57,006 nt of DNA from Deferribacterales bacterium. GTDB taxonomy: Bacteria; Chrysiogenota; Deferribacteres; Deferribacterales; Geovibrionaceae. Below the pieces are notes generated by a model. The model did no database searches. It had not been told where the DNA came from and saw nothing but the letters and a program-made list of their open reading frames with translations. Of the stretch, positions 4,591-21,510 are shown piece by piece (positions within the stretch are counted from its first letter, which is position 1; each line of letters starts with the position of its first letter). The stretch is taken from assembly GCA_050251945.1 (NCBI GenBank), contig JBFWLW010000016.1:1-57006 (forward strand), written 5' to 3'. The translations under genes were made by a program, and so were the position numbers.

Positions 4591-4808
4591 AGTATCTCGT
4601 CAACTCTGTCGTGGACTCTCGCTATGTCCGCGTGCAGCAGCTCATGGCGGTGTTTGCATTCATTCTTTGCAACGTAGTCCCTCGCAAGTATGACATTGGT
4701 CTTTTCCTGTCCCCTTCTCAGCTCGTTTATCGTGCGCCATATGGGCAGAAGAACCATTGCCGAAAGCCCGCCGAGATTCTGTATTATGTCTGATATGTCC
4801 ATTATCAT
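4587..4808 (-). CDS. Small membrane/coiled-coil phage protein (possibly holin-associated)
   Basis: Hydrophobic N-terminus (LGGLSAMVLLPIW) followed by a coiled coil; ATGA overlap with the upstream gene; last gene of the operon. Confidence 0.6.
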   Translation of the reverse strand: MIMDISDIIQNLGGLSAMVLLPIWRTINELRRGQEKTNVILARDYVAKNECKHRHELLHADIARVHDRVDEIL

Positions 4809-5080
4809 GCGAACACCCCGAATTTTTCAGGTTTTTTAACTTCGCTGTTTTTGCCTGTGCTGTCTGTATCTGTGTACGTCGGCGGATAGATGCGGTCGTA
4901 TATAGCCTTCTTTTCTTCGTCAGCGAAGACTTCTTCATAAGTGCCCAACACTGTTACGCCCTCCGGTTCTGCCTCGCACCTGCAAAGGCACATTCTATCC
5001 GAGCCGCCGGTCTGAGGCGGTGTCACTGTCAATCCTTCAATCTGTTCGTCTGTCTGATATATAATAATGATGTCCGTCAT
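4805..5080 (-). CDS. Hypothetical phage protein (fibre-associated or chaperone-like)
   Basis: 91-aa acidic ORF, ATGA-coupled to the fibre gene. Confidence 0.65.
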   Translation of the reverse strand: MTDIIIIYQTDEQIEGLTVTPPQTGGSDRMCLCRCEAEPEGVTVLGTYEEVFADEEKKAIYDRIYPPTYTDTDSTGKNSEVKKPEKFGVFA

Positions 5081-6510
5081 GCCGCATTTACCTCCTCTTC
5101 TGTCAGCGCGCGATCATATATACACAGGTTTGATATGGTGCCGTTAAGGAATCGCGTTCCAAAAGCTGATCCGATATATATAACCGACGTATACTCATAC
5201 GGGTTCGCATCATTTTTGCTGTCTTTGCGTAAACCGTCTATATAGAAAACTGTTTCGGCTCCGGTATACACGGCACTGTATCTGTGCCTTAAGAGAGTGT
5301 TAATTCCAGATAATGCAGAATACGATGCACCGCCTTTTGCCCCTTGAGAGAAAAATCCTCCACCGTAGAAACCAATCCCATGTCTCGTATAAATGGTGTC
5401 CCCCCCAAGCGCTATCCTGTCTGTGGCAGCCGATGGTTCCCATAACAGCTTTATATCCATCACATAAGCATGCCCTGTTGACTGTTGAAGCTTAACCATA
5501 TTATCAGCGAGAGGAAACGAACAGTTATCAGCCGCTCTTGTTGCCGCCGCCGTTGTTGCCGGTATGTATGATGTTGCGAACGGCATGGCTTCAAGCTGTG
5601 CGCCGAAGATGTAAAGTCCGGATGCTCCGTCGCCTGCGTATGATACAACTGAATTCGATTGAGCCAAAACTAATGATGGCTTGCCTGTGGTTGTGGCTCC
5701 TGCGGTTACGCTTATAGAGCATCTGTACCATCCGTCTGCTATTGGCTTTATTTTAGCGGTTATCCCCGTTCCTGTTGAAACGACTGTTCCTGCTGATAAA
5801 TCAAAATGTCCGTATCTGCCGCTTGTTATGCTTGAGGGAAAATATAATCTGAATTGGTCGCGTTCTGCTTTTTTTGCAAAAACCGACAAGGCGTATATGG
5901 TACCAGCGGTAAACGATATGCTGACGCTTTCGACATAGTGCGATACGGTGCTTGTGTCCTCAGTCAGTTTATCCGCCAGATTGGTTCCGTATGGGTCAGT
6001 GACGACGGTTGTATTTGCAGTTACAGCAGACCCCGATTTCACCCACACCGCGTTATCGAACTGTTCCGAATAGGTGAGCAGATTCGTCGAAGCTCCCTCG
6101 ATGAGCAGCCCGTCGGCTGTGAAGCGCGGTGTGTCGGCGGCGGCGGTTTTAAGCACTCCGTATCTGTCAGTGTATGTTGCTGTAGATGCCCTTGTGAAAG
6201 TGCAGATGCTTTGCCCCTGCGAAGTCAGCAGGTTCTTTTTCAGCGGCAGATGTAATAATGGCGCGGAAAGATTGCCTATTATTCCTGACATTGCTGACTT
6301 TGTCATTTTTGCAGAAAGCTGGGTATCGGTCTGCGTTTTTGTGTAAAAATCGTCCTCCAAACCCTCGATACGTACCTTTAGTGCGGGATCTCCCGATTCG
6401 TCCAGAACCATGTTCAGAACTTCGCCCTCTGTCTTGTGGATACCTCTGAGAACGGCATCCGAACTGTCAAAAACATCGTTCAGAATCTCTTTTACGGTCT
6501 TATAGCTCAT
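5077..6510 (-). CDS. Phage head-spike/fibre protein with C-terminal LamG/ConA-like domain
   Basis: TFTRASTATY...PRF...GLLIEGASTNLL and GAQLEA...ATSYIP.T...TRAAD motifs typical of phage spike/fibre proteins; C-terminal IYIGS...NGTISNLCIYDRALT is LamG-like; GGAGG RBS. Confidence 0.75.
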   Translation of the reverse strand: MSYKTVKEILNDVFDSSDAVLRGIHKTEGEVLNMVLDESGDPALKVRIEGLEDDFYTKTQTDTQLSAKMTKSAMSGIIGNLSAPLLHLPLKKNLLTSQGQSICTFTRASTATYTDRYGVLKTAAADTPRFTADGLLIEGASTNLLTYSEQFDNAVWVKSGSAVTANTTVVTDPYGTNLADKLTEDTSTVSHYVESVSISFTAGTIYALSVFAKKAERDQFRLYFPSSITSGRYGHFDLSAGTVVSTGTGITAKIKPIADGWYRCSISVTAGATTTGKPSLVLAQSNSVVSYAGDGASGLYIFGAQLEAMPFATSYIPATTAAATRAADNCSFPLADNMVKLQQSTGHAYVMDIKLLWEPSAATDRIALGGDTIYTRHGIGFYGGGFFSQGAKGGASYSALSGINTLLRHRYSAVYTGAETVFYIDGLRKDSKNDANPYEYTSVIYIGSAFGTRFLNGTISNLCIYDRALTEEEVNAA

Positions 6511-6522
6511 GTCTCCTCCTGT

Positions 6523-7596
6523 TTATCGTTTCTTTTTATAAATATTTCCGTCAGGCGATACATACAGTCCGGCGGCGAGTTCAATATTCCCGTTTTCGTC
6601 GCAGTTGTAATCTGAAACAGATGTACCGTATCCGTCCGGCGCCCACGATTGAATGAATCTGCCGTATTTAAGGTATTCTCCCTGAGACACAGTGTTCACT
6701 CCGGAATCTGCCGTGAAAGGATTCACCGCGCAAGTGTAGAACCCGCTTATGAAAAAACCTGTATCGGCTGTGTCCTCGCAGTAGAAGCCTGTTGTGTCGT
6801 ACCCGATACATTCACCGTAAACCGGAGAAGACGCTCCCGTGATAAGGGCGTATGCGCTCGCTATCTTTTCGTGTATGCCCAGTGACGAATAGAGATAGAA
6901 GTCAAAATCCACTCTGCCGGATGTCTGAGGCTTCCAGTCGGTGAAGGTGTTTACCTGATAGATCATGAACGCGGCTCCGCTTATCGGGTCAACGTGGGCT
7001 GTTATCACGTTTGAACGCGTGCCGTTGAAAACGCCGGATGTTGTCTCCTCGTTGTATGTTTCATAGATGAACTCGCTGCCGAAATAGTAGCGCGTCAGGC
7101 GGGTGTAGACGTTTGTTGTCTGATGCACCTGAAGGGAGTATATCTTCCCGTTTGTGTCGTCGGGCGCAGGCTGGTTGATGTACGTTGGCGTGCTTACCGC
7201 ACACGTCTTTTTTTTCATCGCTTCATATGCCGTGTTGAAAGCCGCTTTGGGCGAGCGGACAAATTCAGTTCTGTGCAAAAGCCCCGACGACAGGATGAAG
7301 TTATCTGTTTCATAGGCTTCCGCAGGCATCGGGACGAAAGGCCAGAGCCTGTCTTTAAATCCGGTTATGTGGGACGGCACACCCTTATATTGTCTGACGA
7401 CAACTGGATCGTTGACTGAGAAGGCGTATGATTCAGGTCTTGCTTCCACAGATTCGTATTCTATGGGCAGACCGCCGTATACTGCGTTATCCACCGTCAC
7501 TTCCACCGTGTTTGCGGAATGATTTGTTTTTGTTACGCGCCCCTCGGCGTAAGAGATGTTTTCTGTGGGGTCAAGGGCGTTCTGAGAGTAGATCAT
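6523..7596 (-). CDS. Putative phage tail-tip protein
   Basis: 357 aa, beta-rich, with an OB-fold-like N-terminus (GRVT...TVEV...AFSVNDPVVV); coupled within the operon. Confidence 0.6.
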   Translation of the reverse strand: MIYSQNALDPTENISYAEGRVTKTNHSANTVEVTVDNAVYGGLPIEYESVEARPESYAFSVNDPVVVRQYKGVPSHITGFKDRLWPFVPMPAEAYETDNFILSSGLLHRTEFVRSPKAAFNTAYEAMKKKTCAVSTPTYINQPAPDDTNGKIYSLQVHQTTNVYTRLTRYYFGSEFIYETYNEETTSGVFNGTRSNVITAHVDPISGAAFMIYQVNTFTDWKPQTSGRVDFDFYLYSSLGIHEKIASAYALITGASSPVYGECIGYDTTGFYCEDTADTGFFISGFYTCAVNPFTADSGVNTVSQGEYLKYGRFIQSWAPDGYGTSVSDYNCDENGNIELAAGLYVSPDGNIYKKKR

Positions 7597-8570
7597 ACAG
7601 CCACCTGATAGAACATTTCAGAAATTATAAAATCTCCTGATTCGGAAAGAGTTTTTTTGACATTGCCGTCAGATATGTCCGTGTCGGGCAGAAGCGGCAG
7701 ATCAAGATTCTTTGCAATTGCCACGAAACTGCCCACTGCAAGTCTGCATGGTGAGACTGATTTTAACCAGCAGCGTTCGCCGTGATATTCTACACACCAG
7801 CGGAGTTCCTTTTCGTAGAGCCATTCGTCTTTCAGGCTGTGTCCTATTCCCCCTTTTACAGGGAAATATTCGTAGGTATACCCCTTGTCCGGATCGTTTT
7901 TGTCGTTGTACACTTTGCGGCGCACGGTCACACCGCATCCGAGCAGAAGCGCTCCGGTGAAAATATCTGTCTGAAAGCTGTAGGAACCCAGATAGTATTC
8001 TTCCGGCAGATCGTACATCCTGAAAAAAACGGAGACAGTGCGTCCGGGAACCAGAAGTGTGTTTGAAAGAGATGTTGAAAGCGGAATGCACCCGTCAACG
8101 TTGTGGGTGTATTCGGGGAATGTTGAAGTTATCCAGCCTATGTGATTTATTCCGGTTTCGCTGAAACCTGCGGAACTGTAATATGAAACGAAAGCCGTCA
8201 CGCCGCATGTATTTATCACCGGAAGATACGCCGTGATGAAGTCGCCCGCACGCTCCCATGGCGATGTGGTGTCTGCATCCGTATAGTCTGCACAGGGCAG
8301 TGTGAACTCTTTTTCTGTTTTGTCCGTTGGGAGCAGGAACAGATTCACGACGTATTCGCCGCTGTCCTCTTCAATCAGATAAACGTTGACTGAAACGGTC
8401 TCAAATCCGTATGAAAGCCAGCCGGCCACTGGCGGTTCGTCTGTGATGACCGACGTTGTGACATAGGTGGAAACGCACTTGTCCGGATAACACATGCCCG
8501 ACGGGGTGTATTCCGACGGACACAGCCAGACGCCCACGGATGAGTATTCCTCGGTGACGTAGCGTGCCAT
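7593..8570 (-). CDS. Hypothetical phage structural protein
   Basis: 325-aa ORF with overlapping start/stop at both ends. Confidence 0.6.
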   Translation of the reverse strand: MARYVTEEYSSVGVWLCPSEYTPSGMCYPDKCVSTYVTTSVITDEPPVAGWLSYGFETVSVNVYLIEEDSGEYVVNLFLLPTDKTEKEFTLPCADYTDADTTSPWERAGDFITAYLPVINTCGVTAFVSYYSSAGFSETGINHIGWITSTFPEYTHNVDGCIPLSTSLSNTLLVPGRTVSVFFRMYDLPEEYYLGSYSFQTDIFTGALLLGCGVTVRRKVYNDKNDPDKGYTYEYFPVKGGIGHSLKDEWLYEKELRWCVEYHGERCWLKSVSPCRLAVGSFVAIAKNLDLPLLPDTDISDGNVKKTLSESGDFIISEMFYQVAV

Positions 8571-9289
8571 CAGGACACCGTGAACGTATCGTTGCAGATG
8601 TTGTCCGCATCCGTATTTTTATAGCCGTCTTTTTCAACGAGGAGACTGTATGTTCCGCTTTTCATGCTTCCCAGACGCACCCTGCCTTCGCTGTCGCTCT
8701 TTCCGGCATACTTTCCGTTCAGATAGACGTGGGCATCTTTGAGCTTTTTCTTTGTGCATGCGTCCCGAACAGTGAGTATGACCGTTCTGTTGTAGGTTCC
8801 AGTCAGGTCATCCGTGAAGTCCAGTGCATAGATTCCGCTGCGTCCGTCCTTTTCTGCGGATACAAGGCAGAAGACTGAACTGCCGCACGTAACGTCGACT
8901 ATATCGTAAACTGTCTCGTATTCTATTCTCAGAACTGCGGTGGCGTTTTCAGGAAGTATCACTGCGCTTTCCGAAAATACCGGATTGCCCGCCTGCCCGC
9001 CCTGCCAAACGGCGGATATCACCGTGTCCACGGGGAAAGAGGCGGAAGCCTTTTTGCTGTCTTTAAATATTATAAACTCGGTAACGGTCTGTCTGTAATT
9101 CGTGCCGTAAAATGAGGCGCTTCCGTATGTAGCTTTAAGCGTCGGGTTAAGCCCGCCGGGGTAAAGCTTCAGCCTAGCCGTTGTACCTGCCGCAAAGACG
9201 GTGGTGCCGTTGTTCTCTTCCGGTTCGAGAACGAAGCGGAAAATGTCGCTGTCGGATGTTTTTTTGAATGTCAGACTGGTGTCAGCCAT
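8570..9289 (-). CDS. Phage structural protein with C-terminal carboxypeptidase-regulatory/PEGA-like domain
   Basis: C-terminus VRDACTKKKLKDAHVYLNG...GTYSLLVEKDGY; N-terminal domain paralogous to the two upstream genes. Confidence 0.65.
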   Translation of the reverse strand: MADTSLTFKKTSDSDIFRFVLEPEENNGTTVFAAGTTARLKLYPGGLNPTLKATYGSASFYGTNYRQTVTEFIIFKDSKKASASFPVDTVISAVWQGGQAGNPVFSESAVILPENATAVLRIEYETVYDIVDVTCGSSVFCLVSAEKDGRSGIYALDFTDDLTGTYNRTVILTVRDACTKKKLKDAHVYLNGKYAGKSDSEGRVRLGSMKSGTYSLLVEKDGYKNTDADNICNDTFTVS

Positions 9290-9785
9290 TTAAAGCCTCC
9301 GCATAGACGATCACGGGATAGCTGTCTCTGTCCTTTGCCGTGAGGGTTATGCCATAAAGTGCGTATGACGTGCGGTAGCTTACAAGCGCCGCCGAGAACA
9401 ACCCCTGTGAGGGTTTTGGCTCAACTGCACACTGCACCGAGTAGACCCCTTTGCGTGTAACAGCACCCAGACTGCCGCCCATCCATTCATAACTGCTGAC
9501 TGATGTTACGGGTTTGTCCGTGTCCGCAGATGATGAATCCAGAAAGACGGCAGTCTCATCCTCAACGTCTTCCGTACATACACCCATTGATGTCAGCGTG
9601 CCGTCGGATGCGAAAACTGCCAGTTTATCGGGGTGTTCAGCATAAACCCTGAAATACGCGGTTTCCCCGTATGCGAATGAAGTTTTGGTCTTTCCGTACT
9701 CGTCGGTATTTCTGTCAGCATCCTGCGTTATCAGTATTTTTGAGCCTTTGGATGATGTCACGAAACTTATGGTTGCGTCGGTCAT
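9282..9785 (-). CDS. Phage structural protein (paralogous beta domain)
   Basis: Start moved to MTDATISF (ATG 9785, ATGA overlap, GAGG RBS). Confidence 0.65.
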   Translation of the reverse strand: MTDATISFVTSSKGSKILITQDADRNTDEYGKTKTSFAYGETAYFRVYAEHPDKLAVFASDGTLTSMGVCTEDVEDETAVFLDSSSADTDKPVTSVSSYEWMGGSLGAVTRKGVYSVQCAVEPKPSQGLFSAALVSYRTSYALYGITLTAKDRDSYPVIVYAEALNG

Positions 9786-11413
9786 GGCTGTACCTCGATT
9801 ATATTTTTCACCCTGAGCGGACTGCCGGATATTTTTATTACTGCCGAGGTAACCCTGCCGGAACCGAATCTGCTTCTGAGTTTCAGTCCCGCTGCCGCGG
9901 TCAGTTCGTTCATGTGTGTTGTTTCCAGTGTTATTCTGTTTGTTGTGTCTGCCAGATTCATCGCCAGACGGAGAGCCGAAACCCTGTCGCACAGGGCAGG
10001 GGCGCTTTTGGTGAGCGAACCTTCACCGTCTCTGAAAATGAGTGTCACGCTGCTGTCGGTCACAGCAGTGACATATTTTTTTGTCTCCGCCGTTTCCGTG
10101 ATGGCGTAGAGGTCATAGACAGCCGTATAAGTAATGGTTCTGTATCCGTTCAGACCGCCGCTTGTCACACAGGTGCCGTCATATCCGATGCCGGCGGTTA
10201 TGACCGACCTTGCGGGGACGGAAAGAGTTCCTTCTCCGTCTGTAAAAAGCACGTCCTCGGTGATGGTCTCCGCTGTGTTGCGGCGTAAGATGGTGAGATT
10301 CTCCGAATCGCTTGTCAGTCTGGCGTTTCCGCTGTGATAAAGCCTTATCGCCGCCGCTTCGCCCGTATCGGTTTCGGAAGGGGCCGCAACATGCACATGA
10401 TTTGATGTATATGCTCCGTAATTTACTGTGATAGTTTTATATTTGTGTTCATCTTTTTCAAATGTACGCGAAAACACGCCGTCCGGAACAAGCCTGATAT
10501 CGGAACCGCCGTCGGTGACTGCTATGTACCCGTCGGGCAGAAGGCGCACCGAAAGACCCGCATTGTCCGCCAGATATTGCGCCAGAGACATATGGGTGAA
10601 CGAGCCTTTGAAGGTGGTTACGAAATCACGTGCCGCCCATATTATCCTGTCTGAAAGTTCCGCCGCCGCTTCCGACGCTTTTTTGCCCGTGATTTCCGCA
10701 TAAAAACTGCCTTCAGGCTCAGGCATCAAACCTGTCAGCACCGTGCTTTTGTCCGATGCCGACACGGAACTGATGCCGAATGTGAAACTTTCCCCGTTTA
10801 TTTCAGCCGTTATGCTTTTCGCGCTTTTCAGCATAGTGCCGAAAGCCGCCTTTACAGACGGAACGCCGAAGAGCGAAATGCTCAGTTCTGTCAGATGCTT
10901 CGTGAAGTCTCTGCCGTCGATGAAAACGGTGAACGTATCTGCGGACACAAAGCCTGCCGCCGAAGGAACTGAAACGGCAAAACTGCCGCTCAGACCTGCG
11001 GGATACATCGGAATTTCGATGCCGGCAAAACTGCTGTATCCGAAATCGCCCAGAGTGTTGGATAAAGAAATATCGGTGTTCAGATGTTGCCCTGTCACGG
11101 ATGGAACTGTCAGGAGACCGTCAGCAGACAGGCTGTTTAAAAGCTCTGTCCCCGCCGCATAGTCGTTCATCGCAGACAGAGAGCTGACCGCTTCGCACGA
11201 TCCGAAGGACGCGGCTGTCATCTCCGCAGTGAGCGTCAGCTCTGCGGAACACGCCAGTGATGTTGATAAAACGTTGGAACCGTCTGTGGAAACCGCTGTC
11301 ATTGAATATGTTCCTCCTGATATGATGAAAGGCGCAGTCAGACCGGACGTGCCGTTTTTTGCGTCTGCCGGCACAAACCCCGCCGCTGTGAAATCTCCGG
11401 CGCAAGTGTCCAT
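9782..11413 (-). CDS. Putative tail hub/baseplate-like protein
   Basis: 543 aa; VFIDGRDFT...LSI and YLADNAGLSVRLLPDGYIAV resemble hub (gp27/gp44-like) segments; position in the operon. Confidence 0.55.
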   Translation of the reverse strand: MDTCAGDFTAAGFVPADAKNGTSGLTAPFIISGGTYSMTAVSTDGSNVLSTSLACSAELTLTAEMTAASFGSCEAVSSLSAMNDYAAGTELLNSLSADGLLTVPSVTGQHLNTDISLSNTLGDFGYSSFAGIEIPMYPAGLSGSFAVSVPSAAGFVSADTFTVFIDGRDFTKHLTELSISLFGVPSVKAAFGTMLKSAKSITAEINGESFTFGISSVSASDKSTVLTGLMPEPEGSFYAEITGKKASEAAAELSDRIIWAARDFVTTFKGSFTHMSLAQYLADNAGLSVRLLPDGYIAVTDGGSDIRLVPDGVFSRTFEKDEHKYKTITVNYGAYTSNHVHVAAPSETDTGEAAAIRLYHSGNARLTSDSENLTILRRNTAETITEDVLFTDGEGTLSVPARSVITAGIGYDGTCVTSGGLNGYRTITYTAVYDLYAITETAETKKYVTAVTDSSVTLIFRDGEGSLTKSAPALCDRVSALRLAMNLADTTNRITLETTHMNELTAAAGLKLRSRFGSGRVTSAVIKISGSPLRVKNIIEVQP

Positions 11414-11414
11414 G

Positions 11415-12602
11415 CTATGCCGTCCTGTACCATTTTGAGCCGTTTGACACGAACGTACGAAGGTCGCCTTCCGCTTCCAGCATTATTTCAGTCGTTTCTA
11501 TATCTCCGATCATCACGGGATTCTGGTTAGTGTCCGTCCTGATAACTGTTACTGACTGCCCTTCGTGTTCCGATGCACTGCCCATTCCGACGTATGCGTA
11601 ACCCTCCGAAGCGTCGGCGAAAACGTATGATATGTCTTTGGGCAGGCTGTAATATCCGCTTATTGAAGCCGTTCCGCCCGTTCCGGATGATCCGCCGCTT
11701 TCCGGCGTGAGATTTACAATGCCGCCGAAAGCTGTCTGCATGAACCAGAAGGCGTCCCCCTCCTTTTTCAGTTCGGTGAGCAGATTATTCGACGTGTCGT
11801 AAATGAAAACGGAATTGTCAGTTTCGTCAGTTTTTATAACAGGGACGGGTATATTGGTCATGGCGCTGTTTTGCTGTATGTACAGATACAAAGGAGATTC
11901 CGACGCATCGGCGTACACAGCGGAGCCGTAGGAAAAGACAGGTCCGCTGGTTTTGAACGTCTGGAATGAGTGCGGCGAGAAAATTCCTGTTCCGATGATG
12001 CGCCATATCCCGCCGATGACAGCCAGTTTCACCGTGCATGCGGAACCCAGTGTGGTCTCGGTAATGCCGTTCAGACCTATAACGTCCCCTTCGGCAGCTA
12101 TTATCACCGCATATTGCGAAGGCTCTGTTCCGCTGTTGATGATGGTAAGAACGTCGCCGCTGTAAAGCGCGGCATCAGGAAGCACACAGCTTATGCTTTG
12201 GTTTGTTTCACTGAAAGAGATCGCGACGGTGCAGTCGAACGGGTCTAAAACAGTTCCCGAATCAGTTACGACCTTGAAGGCTCTTGCGGATGCAAAGGTG
12301 TTAAGCATCTGTGCCGTGACAACGTTGGCTATCAGACTTCCGGTGTTCCAGTCCTTTGCCTGAGTGCTTTCCCTGCCGCGCCCGGCAGTTATGCCGCTTT
12401 CGGTTTTCTGCGCCAGAACTATTTCCCTGTTCGGGTCGTCCGCAGGGGACGCAAAGCCGTTCTCCCATATAACGGCGGTGAAACTGCCGTCCGGAAACAG
12501 TTCCGCATTCTGAACGGTCAGTTCCGTGCCTTCGGCGTGCAGATAAGCGGAAAGCTGTGAGCGTGCAAAGTTGGCGAACCTGTTCATCAGTCTATCTGCC
12601 AT
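11415..12602 (-). CDS. Phage tail/fibre protein with three internal repeats
   Basis: N-terminal EIV...GRGRESTQAKDWNTGS..ANVVTA phage tail motif; repeats (V)YADASE...PVIKTDETDNSV and VFADASEG...VIRTDTNQNPV. Confidence 0.65.
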   Translation of the reverse strand: MADRLMNRFANFARSQLSAYLHAEGTELTVQNAELFPDGSFTAVIWENGFASPADDPNREIVLAQKTESGITAGRGRESTQAKDWNTGSLIANVVTAQMLNTFASARAFKVVTDSGTVLDPFDCTVAISFSETNQSISCVLPDAALYSGDVLTIINSGTEPSQYAVIIAAEGDVIGLNGITETTLGSACTVKLAVIGGIWRIIGTGIFSPHSFQTFKTSGPVFSYGSAVYADASESPLYLYIQQNSAMTNIPVPVIKTDETDNSVFIYDTSNNLLTELKKEGDAFWFMQTAFGGIVNLTPESGGSSGTGGTASISGYYSLPKDISYVFADASEGYAYVGMGSASEHEGQSVTVIRTDTNQNPVMIGDIETTEIMLEAEGDLRTFVSNGSKWYRTA

Positions 12603-13909: not shown

Positions 13910-14263
13910 TCAGCACCTGTATCCGCACTCGATGACAAAGGTCATGGTGCGTGTGTCGGTTGTTTGTATACTGCTTGAAAGGCTGATCGGGCGTGTAGCA
14001 CCGAGTGCATTGACCGCTGTGTGGAAGGGCGACATATCCGCCCTGCCCACAGAGAGCAGGCGAACGTATATTTTCAGATTATGCTGTGTCACCTGCACTC
14101 CGTTGTCGCTGACGGTTTCAAATCCGGCGTAGGCAACCGCCGCCAGCGGTTCCTTTCCCGTCATCACCTCTGTACTGCCGTCTTTCAGCAGGACACGGGT
14201 AAAAACTCTGCACTCCTCAAGCACCTGCACTGTGTCAAGGGTCAGCTGATCCGCCGTCCTCAT
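13910..14263 (-). CDS. Putative head-tail completion protein (Mu gp37-like position)
   Basis: Start MRTADQ at 14263 overlaps the upstream stop (ATGA); assignment by position only. Confidence 0.55.
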   Translation of the reverse strand: MRTADQLTLDTVQVLEECRVFTRVLLKDGSTEVMTGKEPLAAVAYAGFETVSDNGVQVTQHNLKIYVRLLSVGRADMSPFHTAVNALGATRPISLSSSIQTTDTRTMTFVIECGYRC

Positions 14264-14631
14264 CTGTATCCCTGCCAGTTGCCCCGTCCCGCCTGCGTGT
14301 ATGCCGCCGCCTGCTTCGGAATTTCGCCAGTGGACGACGTTACGGGTGCCAGCGGCGCAAGAAGCTGTGCAGTTTCGGTTTTGTACTGTTCCGCCGTTGT
14401 CCATTCGGCGGCGTAGATGTAAAGTTCCGCCAGAGTGCGCTTTTTCACCGCGAGGCGCAGAACTGCGTCCGATTCGTCATATTCCAGACCGTAGCTGTCC
14501 GCCACCGCCTGAACGTATATGCGGGCATTCTCCAGCGCTTCTTCCGCTACGGAATCGTCACCCTGACATACGGCAAGGTAGTCGTCGTCGCGCATGAGTT
14601 CCTGTATCTCTTCAATGTCGATGAGTTCCAT
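14260..14631 (-). CDS. Mu gp36/DUF1320-like head-tail adaptor
   Basis: Helical acidic protein after the capsid gene (AEEALENARIYV...VLRLAV...LAELY...EQYKTET); GGAG RBS before ATG 14631. Confidence 0.65.
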   Translation of the reverse strand: MELIDIEEIQELMRDDDYLAVCQGDDSVAEEALENARIYVQAVADSYGLEYDESDAVLRLAVKKRTLAELYIYAAEWTTAEQYKTETAQLLAPLAPVTSSTGEIPKQAAAYTQAGRGNWQGYR

Positions 14632-14646
14632 ATTAAGCTCCATAAT

Positions 14647-14723
14647 GAGATCGCGTCGTTGCTGCGCGCCTTGCGAAGACGACAAACGTCTCTGCAAGGA
14701 ACAACGTGACGACGCAGTCTCAT
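14647..14723. repeat. CGTC-type REP pair (family A) inside the phage operon
   Basis: GAGATCGCGTCG...TTGCGAAGAC-spacer-CGTCTCTGCAAGG...GCAGTCTC inverted pair. Confidence 0.85.
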
Positions 14724-14731
14724 GTTTAATT

Positions 14732-14757
14732 TCCAGGGCGGGGCAGAACCCCGCCTG
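14732..14757 (-). terminator. Hairpin downstream of the capsid gene
   Basis: GGCGGGG-loop-CCCCGCC stem immediately after the capsid stop; no strong U tract. Confidence 0.45.
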
Positions 14758-14763
14758 TATTCT

Positions 14764-15747
14764 TTAAAGCACTGTCGCCCAGCAGATACCTTTTGTGAAA
14801 GGCACTGGCAGAGGCTTGCTCTCCGCGATTATCTCTATGCTGGAAGAACGGGCATCGCGCACCTGCTTAACAAAGAAGGGCATAGCCGTAAGGTTGCTGT
14901 CCAGATCGTCAATGACGCTGTAAACCAGCTCAAACGGGGCATCCGCGGCGAATGCCATGAGCTTGCCGCTGTCAACCACCTTCACCTGAGACCCCGTGGC
15001 AAGGTCTGTGTATGAGCTGTTCATAAGCTCAACGCGAAATCCGGCTATGTTGATTGTCTTGGAATCTATTACAGCCGTGAGGGATGTGTTCCCGATGTCC
15101 TGAACCACCTTTGCCAGCGCCATGAACGCGCTCTGACCTGCCCAGAAACGGATGTCGGAACCGTAATGGCTGTTGTTCTGAATCTGAGCTTCCATGCCGA
15201 TGAGGTCGGCGAGGATATCGTCGAGGCTGATTGAGGACTGGTTCCATGTTTCTTCGGGAGTGTGTGAAAGCGTGGTGCCGAATTCAACTCCGTATGTGGC
15301 AAGTCCGCCGTCCATGTGCATGGGATATGCGATATTTCCTTTAAGTGACTGCGCCGCCATCGCTTCGGTGGATGCTCTGACGATCCTGCGCAGGCGGTCT
15401 ATCTTATTGTTCACAAGGAGCTGGATGCCTGATTCGTCAAGGAGTTTGAGGTTGTTCACATCCACGCCGTTGAGCCTTTCGGAAGGGCGGAAGGGCTGGG
15501 GTTCGATATGGGTTATGCTTCCGTTCTCTTCGTAAACGGGGACGGGGTCGCCGCCTCTGCGTGTTACGGCTATGTTTGTCACCGGCTGCTGCAGATCGGT
15601 TACGGAAACTGTGGGCAGCGGGTGATTGCGTCTTTTCGCTTCGGGGTATACGTTGTCCATTACGGGGGATTTAAGCTCCGGCATGGACGTGAGCGAGCGG
15701 ACTATGGAGTCCGTTGTAAAGTATTTACCGAGATCAAGCTGTATCAT
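14764..15747 (-). CDS. Major capsid protein (lambda gpE-like)
   Basis: 327 aa; RRIVRASTEAMAAQSLKG and IIAESKPLPVP C-terminal motif of Phage_cap_E-type capsids; follows decoration and protease genes. Confidence 0.85.
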   Translation of the reverse strand: MIQLDLGKYFTTDSIVRSLTSMPELKSPVMDNVYPEAKRRNHPLPTVSVTDLQQPVTNIAVTRRGGDPVPVYEENGSITHIEPQPFRPSERLNGVDVNNLKLLDESGIQLLVNNKIDRLRRIVRASTEAMAAQSLKGNIAYPMHMDGGLATYGVEFGTTLSHTPEETWNQSSISLDDILADLIGMEAQIQNNSHYGSDIRFWAGQSAFMALAKVVQDIGNTSLTAVIDSKTINIAGFRVELMNSSYTDLATGSQVKVVDSGKLMAFAADAPFELVYSVIDDLDSNLTAMPFFVKQVRDARSSSIEIIAESKPLPVPFTKGICWATVL

Positions 15748-15756
15748 ATTAACTCC

Positions 15757-16119
15757 TTAAAATACCCAGATGGGTGCGTTTGTTTCAAGGGACGCAACGT
15801 GCGCCGCGGAAGATGCGGAACCTTTGGTCAGAAGGCTCTTTTTCATCACTGTGCCGTGAACGGCGACGCTTCCTGCCGTGTCTTTTGATGTGTCGATGTC
15901 CTCCGTGCAAACGCCTACGGGCGTATTTGTGCTGTCGGAAGCCGCCGGGTCAAAGCTGACCGCCTTGCCGGATGCGTCAAGGGCGATTATCTCGCCCGCC
16001 TGAACGGTGCCTGCGCCTGATGCAAACTCCATGATGCGGATCACGGCGGGATGTCTGCCGTCTGTTACCGTTTTTCCCGTGATGGTCTGTGTTCCCACCA
16101 CTCCGTTAACTGTTGCCAT
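15757..16119 (-). CDS. Head decoration protein (gpD-like)
   Basis: 120 aa; GTVQAGEII...PVGVCTEDIDTS...VAVHGTV; directly upstream of the capsid gene. Confidence 0.8.
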   Translation of the reverse strand: MATVNGVVGTQTITGKTVTDGRHPAVIRIMEFASGAGTVQAGEIIALDASGKAVSFDPAASDSTNTPVGVCTEDIDTSKDTAGSVAVHGTVMKKSLLTKGSASSAAHVASLETNAPIWVF

Positions 16120-16129
16120 TCGTTCCTCC

Positions 16130-16816
16130 TTATATTTTCGAGAATATTGATGCTGCGGGAGCCTTTTCGGGTCTTAACCCGTGTGTTCCCTGTGAAACGG
16201 GGTTCTTTACCCTGCCGAATATCTCTGCAAGGGTATCTGATGCCTGAACGGCGGGCATTTCGCGTTCAAGCCTGTCTGCGAAGCTGATGAGCGCCTGATA
16301 TGCACCGGAGGGGAGTTTACCCGCCGCCGCCTCTTTCAGTCTGTTCAGCTTATGTTCGAGATTCTGGGTTTTGAGCTTTGAAAACTCACTCATTTCGCTG
16401 TCGGAAAAGACAAACCCGCAATTCAGCGGTGAAAAAGTGATTATCTTTGTCCTGTCGCCCATGCTGATTATCTTCAGGTCTTTGATCATGGGCGGGACAG
16501 CGCCGAGGAACGCAACGTGGTGCAAATACAGGCTGTCGTCCTCTCTGCGTGCCGCGCCGATGCTCCAGTTCTTGTATCTGCCCTCGGCAAACGCCTCCGC
16601 CAGCTCCGTGCCAAGCTCTATCTCGCCCAGAAGCACAGCCTCGTCAGCAGATACCTCCACAGCCGTTACCCAGCCGTATGCGGGCATGGAATCGTCAGAT
16701 TCGTGCCCGATGGTCACAGGTACCTGCGACGTAAAATTTTCAGCCATGCTGAGAATATCTTCGGGTGTTATCACAACACCGTTGTGGTTTCCCGCTCTGG
16801 CAAGTTCCAGTTTCAT
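16130..16816 (-). CDS. Mu-like prohead protease/scaffold (gpI-like)
   Basis: ITPEDILSMAENF...PVTIGH...PAYGWV...GRYKNWS...YLHHVAFLGAVPPMIKDL; GGAGG RBS. Confidence 0.85.
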   Translation of the reverse strand: MKLELARAGNHNGVVITPEDILSMAENFTSQVPVTIGHESDDSMPAYGWVTAVEVSADEAVLLGEIELGTELAEAFAEGRYKNWSIGAARREDDSLYLHHVAFLGAVPPMIKDLKIISMGDRTKIITFSPLNCGFVFSDSEMSEFSKLKTQNLEHKLNRLKEAAAGKLPSGAYQALISFADRLEREMPAVQASDTLAEIFGRVKNPVSQGTHGLRPEKAPAASIFSKI

Positions 16817-16850
16817 ATTCCGCCTCCTTCTCTTTTCGGATTGGCAAATA

Positions 16851-16902
16851 ATACAGGAATTGTTTGTGATATATGTTTAAAAATGACAAATAAAATTTGT
16901 AA
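16851..16902. promoter_or_regulatory. Two ACA-N9-TGT operator-like palindromes upstream of the structural operon
   Basis: ATACA-ggaattgtt-TGTGA (16851-16869) and TGACA-aataaaatt-TGTAA (16884-16902); same motif as at 20795-20883. Confidence 0.7.
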
Positions 16903-16967
16903 TAATTCCTCTTTTAATATATTTGAATAGAGGCTATCCTTTAGAAAAAGCGAAGGGAGATGTACTG

Positions 16968-17927
16968 ATGCTTAAAAAGGCTCTGCTGCTGATATCCGTG
17001 CTGATACTGACCGCCTGTGCCGCCGACAATTCCGCCGTCTATCTTGATACCGCGGCGCAGCTTAAAAACATGCAGGATGCCGGTTCGGCTGTAAAAAAAT
17101 ATGAATCAACCGTTAGAAAGAGCGTCCATTCACACTATTATTACGAAGGACTGGGCGACATATATTATGCGTACGGCGAGTACGGAAACGCAGTGAACCA
17201 GTACACCAGTTCACTGAGGAACAAGGGCGCTTCCGCTGTCCATATCAAACGGGGGGATGCATACGTTAAGCTGGGGTTCTACCCTGACGCCGCGTATGAT
17301 TTCTCATCCGCAATAGACTACGGCGGAGAGAACGCTTATATCGCTTATGCAAAGCGGGCGAAGGTATACATTGAACTTGGAAAATACAAGGAAGCTCTGA
17401 AAGATATTGAAAAGGCCCGGAAGCATACGGAGGTTTCCGCCGATATGGACAGAGCGCTGGCGGAGATATATTACAAGACCGCCGACTACAACACTGCAAA
17501 GGTGTACGCTCAACGGGCTATATCCGCAATACCTGACGATGCGGGACTGTATTATCTGAGGGCAAAGCTGTTTTACAAAACGAAGGATGCCAATCAGGCA
17601 ATAGCCGACTATGAAAAGACTGTCGCCCTTAAACCGGACTTTTCGGACGCGAAGAGGGAGCTTGCCATGGTTTATGCGACATGTCCCGTTTCGATATACA
17701 GAAACGGTGAAAAAGCACTTAAGCTGGCTTCTGAACTTTACGATGCACAGGCATCGTCCGATAATGTGCTTGTCCTTGCGGCGGCATATGCGGAAAACGG
17801 GGATTTTGACAAAGCGGCGGAACTTCTTAAAAATGCAGCGGATAAAGAAAAGGATTTTGTTAAGCAGGACGATATGCGTGTGTATCTGCAGGCATATGAA
17901 GAAAAGAGAACCATAAATAGCTGGTAA
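16968..17927 (+). CDS. TPR-repeat lipoprotein
   Basis: Signal peptide with lipobox LTAC; multiple TPR units; start moved to MLKKALL with GGGAG RBS. Confidence 0.85.
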   Translation: MLKKALLLISVLILTACAADNSAVYLDTAAQLKNMQDAGSAVKKYESTVRKSVHSHYYYEGLGDIYYAYGEYGNAVNQYTSSLRNKGASAVHIKRGDAYVKLGFYPDAAYDFSSAIDYGGENAYIAYAKRAKVYIELGKYKEALKDIEKARKHTEVSADMDRALAEIYYKTADYNTAKVYAQRAISAIPDDAGLYYLRAKLFYKTKDANQAIADYEKTVALKPDFSDAKRELAMVYATCPVSIYRNGEKALKLASELYDAQASSDNVLVLAAAYAENGDFDKAAELLKNAADKEKDFVKQDDMRVYLQAYEEKRTINSW

Positions 17928-18067: not shown

Positions 18068-18241
18068 CTTTCAACAGATATTCAACAATTTTGTTGATAA
18101 AAAAAAGCTTGACAGCATAAACCCTTAAAATTCGGGGGATTCTCTTGATTGTGTTCAATATCAGTTATTTGTGGAATTCTGTGGAATTCATGCTGATAAA
18201 TCACGGGTTTCTAACATTAAATTTTCAACAGGTTTTCCACA
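18068..18241. promoter_or_regulatory. Cluster of DnaA-box-like 9-mers
   Basis: One perfect TTTTCCACA (18233) plus seven imperfect variants (about 1-3 mismatches) at 10-13 bp spacing. Confidence 0.5.
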
Positions 18242-20396
18242 TCTTTGATGCAGGCTCCAGCACACCCCCGTATTCATCGTAATGCATTATTATTTCATCG
18301 AACAGATTTTCCCTTTCATGAGTGAAAGATAGAACGACTGAGTATCTTATTTCCGAATTATCCGCACAGAAGTCCCGTTTAGACGGTGTTATCCTGAGAA
18401 CCAGCTCTCCGGGCAGTGCGGCTCCTTTCAGCTTTGTTTCGTAAAGCTTAACAGGGTTCCATTTAAACATCTCCCTGTTCACTTCTTTCTCTTCTGTGCT
18501 TTTTTGCAGAGCCAGCAGATCTTTAGAAGTCAGTATCGCCTTCCATGAACCCCTTTTGTAATAGCCGAGGGAAAGTTCCAGATTTGTGCAGCAGTAATAA
18601 TGAGGAAAATTCAGGTCTGTTCTCGTCTTATAGACAAGGGTCATTTCAATTCTTCCGGCGTTCTTTCCGCACATGGGAGCGGGTACCGGGATTCCGTTCA
18701 CCTCTGTAATACCGCCCTGCCGCACAACGCCTTCATGCAGGTATACAGCGCTGGACGTTATCTCTTCAAAATTTTCATTAGCCTCTGTGATGATGCCGTA
18801 ACCGGTATAAAGATCGGGCGGACGGCGGGAGTGCAGGCGGGTGTAGTGCAATAGCATTGCCTTTGTCATATCAGGGCTTTGAAATACATGTGAATATCTG
18901 TGGAAAATCTTTGCGGCAAGTGCGGTGACCATGGGCACTGCGTGGGATGTTCCGGAATCTTCGGCAAGTTCGTTCCGCGTACCGATGGAGAATACCCCCA
19001 CGGGATAAAGCCTTCCCATCCGTTTTTCGTGTGAACCGCCGTATGCGCACACCTCCGGTTTCACAAACCCGGCGGACGAGGGACCTCTGCGTGTGAAGAG
19101 GGAAGGGGAGTGGTGCGGCTGTACGTTTGTGTCTCTGTGGGTGACGGAACCGACGGTTACGGAATGTACGCTTTCCGCCGGCGAGGTTATCCGGTTGTCG
19201 GACGGGTGTTCTTCCGAAAGTCCGCGCAGTTTTTCATAGTTGCCGCCGGAGATGATGAACAGAACGTCGTAGCGCTCCTGTAATGAGTCAAGAACATGCG
19301 CAGCCGCTGAAAAACAGTTTGGGTCTGCCTGCGTATCCGAGCCCAGTGATATGTTATACACTTTGATTATTTTGTGGTATGTCCGCAGCGTCGCTTCAAG
19401 CCTCTGCTGGAACTCTGCCAGTCCGATGCTTCCCCCCGCCGGAAGTATTTCTGCGTTCAGATAGACGATGCCGCCGAAGCTTTCACCGTCGTTAAGAAGC
19501 CGACCTGTGACGAAAGTACCGTGTTTGGGGTCTTTTTCCGATTCGGTGCAGAAACTTAAGGTATCCATTTCCCATTCGCGCAGATATGAGGAGGGGGATA
19601 TGCCGGAATCCACAATGGCGGCTCTGGGGTATATCTTTTCCGTGTCGCGCATCTGCACACATTCCAGCGGCAGATCGCCATGCCGCACATAATCCTCTTT
19701 CAAAACCAGACAGGAGGCGGGAGACACGGAACGCACAAGACTGTGGGTGGCAATGGTATCCAGTTTAGCCTTTATGTCGGGGATATGCGCCTGAATTATT
19801 CGGTAACCGCCTATTCTTATTATTTTTGAACGATCCGCCGATGCTTCGTTTTTCAGAAAACCAAGAAGGTTTTCTTCGCCCTCGCCGGGGAGAGTGTGGA
19901 TGTATATGCTTTCGTCGGAACTCATTTCCGCAAGCCCTGTTTCAAAAGGATTGCTGAGCGAAATCTTCTCATGAGGCATGAAGGTGTGCATTGTCTCTAT
20001 GTGACTGAAAGAAGCCATAAAGTCCTTTCCGCCGCCGTTAATTACATGGGTGTTCAGTTTTGCCAGCGCCTCTTCGCCGTTTATGCCGAAAACAAGGTCG
20101 GACAGTGAAAGGCTGGCGACCGGTCTGATGCCGGTTGCGGAGAGAAAGTGATACCGGAGTGATTTTGAGAATGAACCCTGTCTGAGGGTCATGATATTGT
20201 ACACAGGCAGAAAGCGGTTGTACTCGAATCTTTTGTAAAATCCGAATCCTGATGCGAGGGAGCGGGCGATGTACTCTCTGTCCGGAAGTCCGCGGCAGGA
20301 CGTTCGCGGTGACCCGCCTCTGACTTTTCTGGGGTTAGGTCTGTGCATGGATCTGGAAAAACGCAGGATGAACGGACAACAGCCGCTGACTGTCAT
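18225..20396 (-). CDS. S8 subtilisin-like serine protease (IetS/Y4bN-like cytoplasmic type)
   Basis: Catalytic D (IVDSGI), H (KHGTFV), oxyanion N (SGGNY) and S (SGTSHAVP); no signal peptide; GGAGG RBS. Confidence 0.88.
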   Translation of the reverse strand: MTVSGCCPFILRFSRSMHRPNPRKVRGGSPRTSCRGLPDREYIARSLASGFGFYKRFEYNRFLPVYNIMTLRQGSFSKSLRYHFLSATGIRPVASLSLSDLVFGINGEEALAKLNTHVINGGGKDFMASFSHIETMHTFMPHEKISLSNPFETGLAEMSSDESIYIHTLPGEGEENLLGFLKNEASADRSKIIRIGGYRIIQAHIPDIKAKLDTIATHSLVRSVSPASCLVLKEDYVRHGDLPLECVQMRDTEKIYPRAAIVDSGISPSSYLREWEMDTLSFCTESEKDPKHGTFVTGRLLNDGESFGGIVYLNAEILPAGGSIGLAEFQQRLEATLRTYHKIIKVYNISLGSDTQADPNCFSAAAHVLDSLQERYDVLFIISGGNYEKLRGLSEEHPSDNRITSPAESVHSVTVGSVTHRDTNVQPHHSPSLFTRRGPSSAGFVKPEVCAYGGSHEKRMGRLYPVGVFSIGTRNELAEDSGTSHAVPMVTALAAKIFHRYSHVFQSPDMTKAMLLHYTRLHSRRPPDLYTGYGIITEANENFEEITSSAVYLHEGVVRQGGITEVNGIPVPAPMCGKNAGRIEMTLVYKTRTDLNFPHYYCCTNLELSLGYYKRGSWKAILTSKDLLALQKSTEEKEVNREMFKWNPVKLYETKLKGAALPGELVLRITPSKRDFCADNSEIRYSVVLSFTHERENLFDEIIMHYDEYGGVLEPASKMWKTC

Positions 20397-20785: not shown

Positions 20786-20794
20786 ATTTCACTT

Positions 20795-20883
20795 ATACAG
20801 ATTATTTGTGTCATGTTCAAACAGAAAATATTTGTTGAAAAATACAGCCATATTGTGTATAAAGATACAAATTATATATGTTT
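20795..20883. promoter_or_regulatory. Four-operator divergent switch with rightward sigma70 promoter
   Basis: AWACA-N9-TGT sites at 20795, 20819, 20842 and 20865; TTGAAA(20835)-N17-TATAAA(20858). Confidence 0.8.
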
Positions 20884-20894
20884 CGGAGGTTGGT

Positions 20895-21146
20895 ATGGCG
20901 GCACCTTTAAAAGTATGGGAAGAGGAGAGCATCACAAAGCAGATGGCGAAAGTGGTGTCGAGGAACCTGACGATATATCAGGTGGCAAAGATGCTTCAGG
21001 TCAGTCATATAACGGTGAGGCGCTGGATAAAAGAAGCTAAGCTCATAGCATGGAACACAAATCTTGAAGGGCATGGGAGATGGCGTGTACCGAAGGAGAG
21101 CCTTGAGGAATTTTTACAGTCCAGAAACTGTATGAACATAGATTAA
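20895..21146 (+). CDS. Excisionase-like HTH_17 DNA-binding protein
   Basis: LTIYQVAKMLQVSHITVRRWIKEAKL...GRWRVPKESLEEF; GGAGG RBS before ATG 20895. Confidence 0.85.
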   Translation: MAAPLKVWEEESITKQMAKVVSRNLTIYQVAKMLQVSHITVRRWIKEAKLIAWNTNLEGHGRWRVPKESLEEFLQSRNCMNID

Positions 21147-21147
21147 A

Positions 21148-21181
21148 AGATCGCGTCGTCGCTGCACTCCTCGCGAAGACG
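21148..21181. repeat. Half CGTC-type REP (family A)
   Basis: AGATCGCGTCGTCGCTGCACTCCTCGCGAAGACG. Confidence 0.75.
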
Positions 21182-21196
21182 AAACACTTTATGGGG

Positions 21197-21510
21197 AGCG
21201 CTGCGAAAAAGTGGCAGGTATGTCGCTTTTGAGTGTCAAAGGCACAGGAAGTGCCTCATGAAGTATACATTTTGCGGTTCAGCGCAAAAGAGATGCGCAA
21301 TGTGAGCGTAATTCGGGCTTTGCCTGAATGAAGCGCTGCGAAAAAGTGGCAGGTATGTCACTTTTGAGTGCCAAGGGCGCAGGAAGTGCCTCATGAAGTA
21401 TATATTTTGCGGTTCAGCGCAAAAGAGATGCGCAATGTGAGCGTAATTCGGGCTTTGCCTGAATGAAGCGCTGCGAAAAAGTGACATGGATGTCACTTTT
21501 GAGTGTCAAA
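21197..21510 (+). repeat. Tandem 135-bp structured repeat (family B), 2.3 copies
   Basis: GCGCTGCGAAAAAGTG recurs at 21198, 21333 and 21468; units are near identical. Confidence 0.92.

Follow-up and report, generated by a model that had tools for sequence, protein, structure and literature searches.

A predicted XRE/HTH_17 switch and operators in a capsid-operon leader of a candidate gene transfer agent lineage in Deferribacterales

Few lineages of gene transfer agents (GTAs) have been shown experimentally, and the switches that turn them on took years to find. The PBSX element of Bacillus subtilis is a non-replicating, vertically kept phage remnant that occupies one contiguous locus, builds a contractile tail and encodes a phage sigma factor. 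The cascade of phage Mu is not known to include repressor operators at late promoters. In Caulobacter crescentus, RogA and the XRE protein CdxB repress gafYZ, and GafYZ activate the GTA cluster (PMC9632790, PMC13236601, PMC11150451), while the GTA of Rhodobacter capsulatus (RcGTA) is described as a multilocus ‘genome’ (PMC5026251). The late promoters of Mu (Plys, PI, PP and Pmom) possess a -10 but no -35 element, with the site of the activator C centred at -43.5 (PMC2582627), the 434 repressor binds 14-bp operators with an uncontacted centre (PMC1636474), and PBSX is an Xre-controlled defective prophage (PMC8987985).

The window analysed here is a stretch of 57,006 nucleotides (positions 1 to 57,006 of contig JBFWLW010000016.1) from the genome of a Deferribacterales bacterium (GCA_050251945.1; G000 in our set), which was compared within a family of 16 genomes in four genera, g1 and g4 comprising 11 genomes and g2 and g3 five. 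A 12-kb minus-strand operon encoding a head protease, a decoration protein, the capsid and tail-tip/fibre ORFs is headed by the capsid leader (Table 1, with homologues in the Mu-like Ralstonia siphophage RS138). Both ACA-N9-TGT sites that an earlier note on this DNA had claimed in the leader are present, as are all four matching sites that it had placed at 20795-20883, in a switch between the genes of an XRE and an HTH_17 protein. Switch sites 1 and 3 each lie at -26 to -12 of their own promoters, and the array is conserved throughout the family (three sites being used in G007). As in operators of the XRE/cI type, palindromic half-sites are conserved around a variable centre, the sites are repeated at the repressor's own promoter, and they overlap core elements of the (predicted) target promoter.

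Table 1. Predicted features of the window around the capsid-operon leader and the switch.
Feature	Position	Strand	Remarks
Predicted proximal operator	16851..16869, core 16853-16867		ATACAGGAATTGTTTGTGA; ACA-N9-TGT; -26..-12 of capsid-operon promoter, touching -10; register of switch sites 1 and 3
Predicted distal operator	16884..16902, core 16886-16900		TGACAAATAAAATTTGTAA; ACA-N9-TGT; -59..-45 of capsid promoter; 33 bp from proximal
Predicted late (capsid) promoter	16848..16880	-	box TTAAACATAT 16880-16871, 17-bp spacer, -10 TATTAT 16853-16848
Divergent promoter and TPR lipoprotein gene	16912..17927	+	promoter 16912-16940; ATG about 16968
Switch	20792..20883		four predicted operators (ACA at 20797, 20821, 20844, 20867), spacing 24/23/23 bp, overlying two divergent sigma70 promoters
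P_xre, predicted sigma70 promoter	20820-20792		TTGAAC-17-TATAAG
P_hth17, predicted sigma70 promoter	20835-20863		TTGAAA-17-TATAAA
XRE repressor, 119 aa	20426..20785	-	helix residues Q29, Q30, S33, E36 invariant
HTH_17 (Xis/BldC-like), 83 aa, candidate late activator	20895..21146	+	
IetS-like S8 peptidase, directly behind xre	18225..20396	-	D/H/S motifs intact
Head maturation protease, first operon gene	16130..16816	-	phrog_976, E 3.8e-22
Head decoration protein	15757..16119	-	PF02924
Major capsid protein	14764..15747	-	PF03864; one orthologue in 16/16 genomes, 62-98% identity
Two small ORFs, putative head-tail adaptor and tail terminator	13910..14643	-	position, synteny with RS138; no convincing family match
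Tail-tube-fold (distal-tail-like) protein, 121 aa	13539..13928	-	RS138 gp47 homologue, E 6e-16
Tail-tip protein, 316 aa	12587..13537	-	homologue of N-/C-terminal parts of RS138 gp48, E 4e-37
Rest of structural operon	4587..12602	-	tail-tip/fibre-like ORFs, 73-aa terminal ORF
Spike/lectin-domain fibre	5077-6510	-	NF048003 above cut-off

The bare ACA-N9-TGT motif is common, with 708 matches in the 3.07-Mb genome, 78 of them intergenic by crude gene calls, and the 6-bp core is not enriched genome-wide, its count falling within the range for spacers of 3-15. Within the window 23 matches stand against 12.65 expected, and among the 11 core pairs in the genome that lie no more than 60 bp apart, four are at the switch and the capsid leader. 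When a symmetrised 19-bp profile built from 47 distinct switch sites of the 16 family genomes is used, the intergenic region of the capsid leader ranks first among 2674 upstream windows (where it is listed twice, once for each flanking gene, and from which the switch genes are missing, as the crude gene caller overlooked them) and also first among the 488 AT-rich windows counted, and its score is attained by none of 1000 shuffles. The earlier note had itself raised the prospect that the motif is as frequent as chance would have it; this applies to the bare core but not to the full profile, which lies far above chance. A leave-genus-out profile of 28 sites, taken solely from the XRE switches of the other three genera, yields seven pairs in the window's genome, five at the switch, one in the capsid leader and one at G000:C1:630726, so that paired sites occur at just three loci, of which the last is poorly conserved; single sites scoring at least 10 by this profile number 98 genome-wide. 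The two leader sites are very probably true operators, and their binder is most likely XRE.

The third cluster, near G000:C1:630.7 kb, was rejected as a regulon member, since sites are found in only two of 10 orthologous leaders. The region (G000:C1:630580-630810, L158/L159), between a flavodoxin-like gene and a divergent gene, combines operator-like sites, seen only in G000 and G002, with a TTAAACATAT box in one intergenic region. A hand-written IUPAC pattern for paired operators proved too strict, missing the window's own pair and matching two of the 16 genomes, and was replaced by the profile.

Across the family, exact ACA-N9-TGT sites occur in 13 of the 16 capsid leaders, in two copies in nine of them, and the same 13 carry the profile signal, at most one of 200 shuffles reaching the score in each case. 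The signal is kept in all five g2/g3 genomes despite an unlinked xre, which lies about 70-80 kb from the capsid leader in four and on another contig in one; the contention of the earlier note that the two loci form one system is thereby supported. The proximal site takes different registers among lineages, starting at -26, -35 or -37 (-35..-21 or -37..-23 in g2, g3, G001 and G003), and the inter-site spacing is 31-33 bp in 11 of the 13 genomes with signal and 41 and 43 in the other two, a shifting register with kept spacing being what would be expected from turnover of a cooperative pair. The distal site of G010 is weak (2.9 bits), the pair of G007 is modest, and several genomes retain the TG-T beside the -10, part of the proximal site, without its ACA. 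Capsid operators are lacking in three of the four g4 genomes (G009, G013 and G011, where 27, 53 and 94 of 200 shuffles reach the score), and these capsid promoters still carry the late box described below, which suggests that a direct lock on the operon is dispensable. At the terS promoters the exact motif is found in one of 16 (best profile score 9.4, all 16 below 10), and at the lysin promoters in none of 11 (scores at most 5.4).

The remark in the earlier note that no good sigma70 -35 accompanies the TATTAT of the capsid leader is accurate: the hexamer 17 bp before it is ACATAT, and a sigma70 consensus scan detects no minus-strand promoter in the leader. The -35 is replaced by the box TTAAACATAT at -39 to -30, the shared element being TTAAACATAT-N17-TAnnnT. 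An identical box with a 17-bp spacer and TATAAT precedes terS-terL-portal (G000:C4:279678), and the same architecture is present at the promoter of a lysozyme gene followed by a 59-aa ORF (G000:C1:111149), a locus found blind in a box scan allowing one mismatch, which returned eight places. In the 11 g1/g4 genomes every capsid, terS and lysin promoter carries the box, with no more than two mismatches and a spacing of 17 or 18 bp. A strict pattern, derived from two of its own three matches in G000, gives 36 matches in these genomes, 25 on the three element promoters, versus nine for a reversed control, and two unrelated matches in g2/g3. As its count of three in G000 is no higher than with other spacers (0-4), it is the placement and not the number that constitutes evidence. 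A variant box in g3 (YACAY-N4-TAACAA-N19-TAnnnT, derived from its own capsid and terS promoter matches) has eight matches in four genomes, all on capsid and terS promoters, and none in G007. A lysozyme orthologue is found in all 11 g1/g4 genomes; in G010, a 59-aa homologue and a different, endolysin-like ORF (so called by position) lie inside the structural operon, so that no third promoter is needed. Ten non-element box matches, when inspected, revealed no recurrent phage gene, save two orthologous LacI-like leaders, and no Mor/C gene was found in G000.

The lysozyme 5' leader (G000:C1:111188-111270, L075/L079; orthologues L080-L089) can form a branched hairpin with ATGAAGA/TCTTCAT-like arms, which in 10 of the 11 genomes extends from the predicted +1 to a point shortly ahead of the ribosome-binding site, with z from -1.4 to -4.8 versus mononucleotide shuffles and no Rfam match. 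It may act as a timer for lysis.

Turning to the proteins of the switch, the XRE recognition-helix motif QQ..S..E is present in 16 of 16 genomes. The Gln-Gln recognition helix of the 434 repressor reads ACA half-sites, a point which our searches did not confirm; the similarity of XRE to that repressor amounts to only E 0.1, and a domain search detected no S24 autocleavage domain in XRE. The xre ATG lies 5-6 bases past its -10 in all 11 g1/g4 genomes, and the mRNA is probably leaderless, as is the repressor mRNA from lambda PRM. The helix of HTH_17 is QVSHITVRRWIK in 11/11 g1/g4 genomes and QVNPLTVKRWIW in 5/5 g2/g3 genomes, and these two types parallel the two box types, while operator and XRE helix are nearly fixed; the covariation of box and HTH_17 represents one phylogenetic split (g1+g4 versus g2+g3) and is not independent evidence. 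HTH_17 exceeds the cut-off of the excisionase-like model TIGR01764 and is weakly BldC-like (E 0.016), its 25.5 bits placing it outside the BldC family as delimited by the NCBIfam HTH_BldC cut-off of 77 bits. BldC binds direct repeats head-to-tail (PMC5859096), and a second box copy, spaced by 10 bp, in some late promoters is in line with such binding. The region between hth17 and ftsY contains a 135-bp direct repeat in about 2.3 copies with 96% identity and internal palindromes (window 21197-21500).

The S8 peptidase gene follows xre in 16/16 loci and is under purifying selection (dN/dS about 0.1), its catalytic motifs being matched by a strict pattern in nine of 13 loci. The protein is IetS-like (PADLOC E 3e-92) but under the NF042956 (IteS) cut-off, and no IetA-like ATPase neighbours it in G000, G007 or G010; an IetS-like protein without adjacent IetA does not amount to an IetAS defence system. 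That it takes part in induction or lysis is speculative; the suggestion draws on the Caulobacter GTA, whose LypABC proteases are defence-derived (PMC13236601).

These elements can be assembled into a circuit in which XRE dimers would bind the four switch sites, shutting the sigma70 promoter of hth17 and tuning their own, probably leaderless, promoter. On induction, possibly and quite speculatively via the adjacent IetS-like protease, HTH_17 would be made and, as its covariation with the box suggests, would bind TTAAACATAT and activate three late promoters together, those of the head/tail-tip operon, of terS-terL-portal and of lysozyme with the 59-aa ORF. In most lineages XRE would also hold the two head-operon operators, three helical turns apart, one of them over the spacer/-10 or over the box itself. 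With XRE operators on a head promoter driven by HTH_17, the largest operon would require both the loss of XRE and the gain of HTH_17. The chances are somewhat better than even, in our judgement, that a coherent feed-forward circuit of this kind controls a domesticated, multilocus phage-derived particle. Direct control of the structural operon by XRE or its divergent partner, as put forward in the earlier note, stands in so far as the sites look like true operators in a switch-like register; the choice between the two proteins divides, the operator tilting towards XRE and the late box towards HTH_17.

Several other explanations have to be weighed against this circuit. That the leader sites match by chance in AT-rich DNA, or come about as a by-product of the promoter, would agree with the common, unenriched bare motif, with the 98 single sites and with the similar, scarcely conserved cluster at 630.7 kb, but is made very improbable by the first rank in both sets of windows, by the conservation with turnover and kept spacing in 13/16 genomes and by the absence from the sister promoters. 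We also regard it as quite improbable that the sites mainly serve the divergent TPR lipoprotein gene and not the capsid operon. All four genera keep this gene next to the protease gene and in divergent orientation to it, and the distal site, equally close to the TPR and the capsid promoter, ends 11 bp before the TPR -35 in the window and 10-14 bp before it in g1 and G015; however, in every genome having it the proximal site overlaps the capsid spacer/-10 or the box, and its distance to the TPR -35, upstream of which it lies, exceeds 40 bp. Operators are often common to the divergent pairs of phage switches, and a Cro-like HTH_17, or both proteins, could bind ACA-N9-TGT and leave the late box to another factor. 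This is quite unlikely, as the palindromic operator is constant across genera that differ in the HTH_17 helix but share that of XRE, and as BldC-like proteins bind direct repeats (PMC5859096).

Were XRE alone to gate the structural operon, its promoter firing once XRE is gone, the early/late cascade would collapse into one step, as the earlier note had inferred; the proximal operator is in a repressing position, a usable -10 is conserved in the capsid promoter of 16/16 genomes, and TAAACA could serve as a -35 with a 20-bp spacer. Yet the canonical -35 position holds ACATAT, the packaging and lysis promoters are essentially operator-free and nevertheless share the activator-type box with the capsid promoter, and in three g4 genomes the capsid promoter has the box but lacks operators. 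One-step control is thus unlikely; as read from the sequence the cascade is not collapsed but would run in two tiers, with the capsid operon locked directly in addition. Alternatively, with XRE operators that are real, a host activator or alternative sigma factor may read the late box, since G000 encodes several sigma-4-domain proteins (nine matches) and GTAs are usually wired into host regulators, e.g. IHF (PMC11150451). Reading by a host factor is rather unlikely given the sigma70-like -10 of the late promoters, the confinement of conserved matches to element loci and the way in which box type follows HTH_17 helix type. The feed-forward circuit of XRE and HTH_17 remains our preferred reading.

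As to the particle that this circuit may control, the phage-derived head, portal, terminase and lysis genes are intact, as in GTAs. The 12-kb structural operon contains no portal or terminase; terS, terL and Portal_Mu form a three-gene island among host genes on another contig (G000:C4:279732-282731). The genes directly before gp47 in RS138 are those of the major tail protein, chaperone and tape measure, whereas the gap between the capsid gene and that of the 316-aa protein is here only 1.1-1.8 kb in 11/11 loci. The tail tube and tape measure of RS138 have no match in G000, and no separate locus for either was found; PF10145 is above cut-off in six of the 16 genomes, but in none of them at an element locus, and four of the 16, G000 not included, have Mu F. 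The short gap and the lack of RS138 tube and tape-measure matches lead us to predict a shaftless particle. What counts against a DNA-delivering, GTA-like reading is that no gene for a tail tube, a tape measure or Mu F/pilot could be linked to the element, several of whose ORFs carry no assignment. The best match of the 121-aa ORF to a tail-tube-like fold has E 1.6e-3, and for the 316-aa protein, fold searches yielded PDB matches at domain level only (best Z 8.4), besides two full-length viral matches. Judging from the gene content, the most likely product would be a particle of the GTA type that packages DNA but does not replicate, descends from a Mu-like siphophage and has no tail shaft.

Conservation of the fibre protein across genera is limited to roughly its first 50 residues, the remainder being swapped (e.g. 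for a repeat protein in G010), which is typical of receptor-binding modules. The C-terminal domain of the 316-aa tail-tip protein also matches FlgL/FlgK folds and, in G010 (L175:5027-7858) and other g2/g3 genomes, an insert in a 943-aa protein that from its ends and neighbours looks like a flagellar hook protein. A short palindromic repeat (CTCGCGAAGAC/CTCGCAGAGAC-like) recurs in intergenic gaps, including one inside the structural operon (window 14640-14760), with similar text at 21146-21185 and at G000:C4:279530-279600.

The capsid, terL, XRE and tail-tip genes are each present in 16/16 family genomes. No capsid match was obtained in 25 genomes of sister families or among GenBank phages, and the tail-tip profile found none in 52 other genomes of the phylum. 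Named records with the capsid gene belong to Seleniivibrio, Denitrovibrio and Deferribacterales, tail-tip homologues come from Geovibrio and Limisalsivibrio, and the single IMG/VR contig matched by the capsid is the same element. Capsid and terL have dN/dS values of 0.01-0.06 (eight pairs each), and 14 element and flank genes compared with three relatives range from 0.02 to 0.24 (two values undefined). With one gene of the host cell-division cluster as marker, the host topology is not rejected for capsid (AU p 0.19) or terL (p 0.083), which share 10/13 and 9/13 splits with the marker, a pattern of vertical inheritance under purifying selection as in GTAs. In G013 (L064, L103) both terL and the host marker gene contain internal stops, which are probably assembly errors.

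No replication, integration or transposition genes are found among the ORFs at element loci. In G000, two related prophage transposases have no tblastn match and Mor/C and gpF are lacking; together with the split loci, this sets the element apart from an active Mu-like prophage. We take it to be domesticated and not a recent prophage. The Portal_Mu and phrog_976 matches point to Mu-like ancestry rather than to the alphaproteobacterial RcGTA/CcGTA lineage. Two prophages unrelated to the element, having terminase or tail genes of their own, are located at G000:C4:71000-107000 and G000:C12:3000-43500, and Mu-like prophages with distantly related capsids (34-38%), distinct from the element, in G001 and G009. 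The element is a candidate for a new GTA lineage in Deferribacterales, of which we found no description in the open-access literature, although supplementary tables of GTA or prophage surveys might list it. A more far-reaching proposal, which we hold to be possible but doubtful, is that of an independently evolved Deferribacterota GTA from a Mu-like siphophage, with a shaftless particle of head, neck and tail tip that has neither tube nor tape measure, three or four dispersed loci under a lambda-style XRE/Xis-like switch, HTH_17 in place of Mu C as late activator, a capsid operon double-locked by the repressor and an orphan IetS protease recruited from defence as inducer.

What is offered is thus a candidate GTA lineage in an unrelated phylum whose regulatory code, consisting of an operator, an activator box, two proteins and three target promoters, is readable from sequence. 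If the particle truly is without a tail shaft, it would represent an unusual design for DNA delivery or a repurposed capsid. The family moreover records the fragmentation stage by stage: loci are clustered in g4 but dispersed in g1, g2 and g3, and promoters were gained when loci split.

Among the systems described, PBSX is similar in having an Xre repressor (PMC8987985) over a non-replicating, vertically kept phage remnant, while the present element is spread over three or four loci with no sheath or tube recognised. The lambdoid cI/cro switch likewise sets multiple palindromic operators, whose centres are variable and AT-rich, over divergent promoters; compared with the 14-bp operators of 434 (PMC1636474), the operator here is of 15 bp, the partner is Xis/BldC-like and not Cro, and no S24 domain is detected. 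The late promoters of Mu share the -10 without a -35 and an activator-type site over the -35 position (PMC2582627). From Mu and RS138 are also known the promoter before the head protease gene and Portal_Mu, and from RS138 the order protease-decoration-capsid-adaptor followed by distal tail and tail tip. Unlike in Mu and RS138, there is no Mor/C, no Mu F in G000 and no match to the transposases of related prophages, and the tail-tube/chaperone/tape-measure block of RS138, roughly 6 kb, is missing. In RcGTA (PMC5026251), too, structural, accessory and lysis genes lie at several separate loci and are maintained by selection acting on the host, and the NF048003 match here is to a spike-fibre domain like that of RcGTA; by comparison, the packaging genes of the present element form a separate locus, and no tail tube or tape measure is recognised. 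The regulation would work like that of a GTA, and would be comparable to that of the Caulobacter GTA (PMC9632790, PMC13236601, PMC11150451). That GTA belongs to another phylum and ancestry, the element described here having a Mu-like portal and protease; in the circuit proposed here, repressor and activator are arranged as a divergent switch in lambda style, the head operon would be the second module under repression, the activator site stands in place of the -35 and not, with IHF, near -120, and no GafZ-like antiterminator was seen on inspection. In both, a helix-turn-helix repressor on palindromic repeats silences (or here, would silence) a small activator of a domesticated phage cluster and of accessory loci, the circuit has a defence-like protease module linked to it, and CdxB represses the activator together with a second module, just as we propose for XRE.
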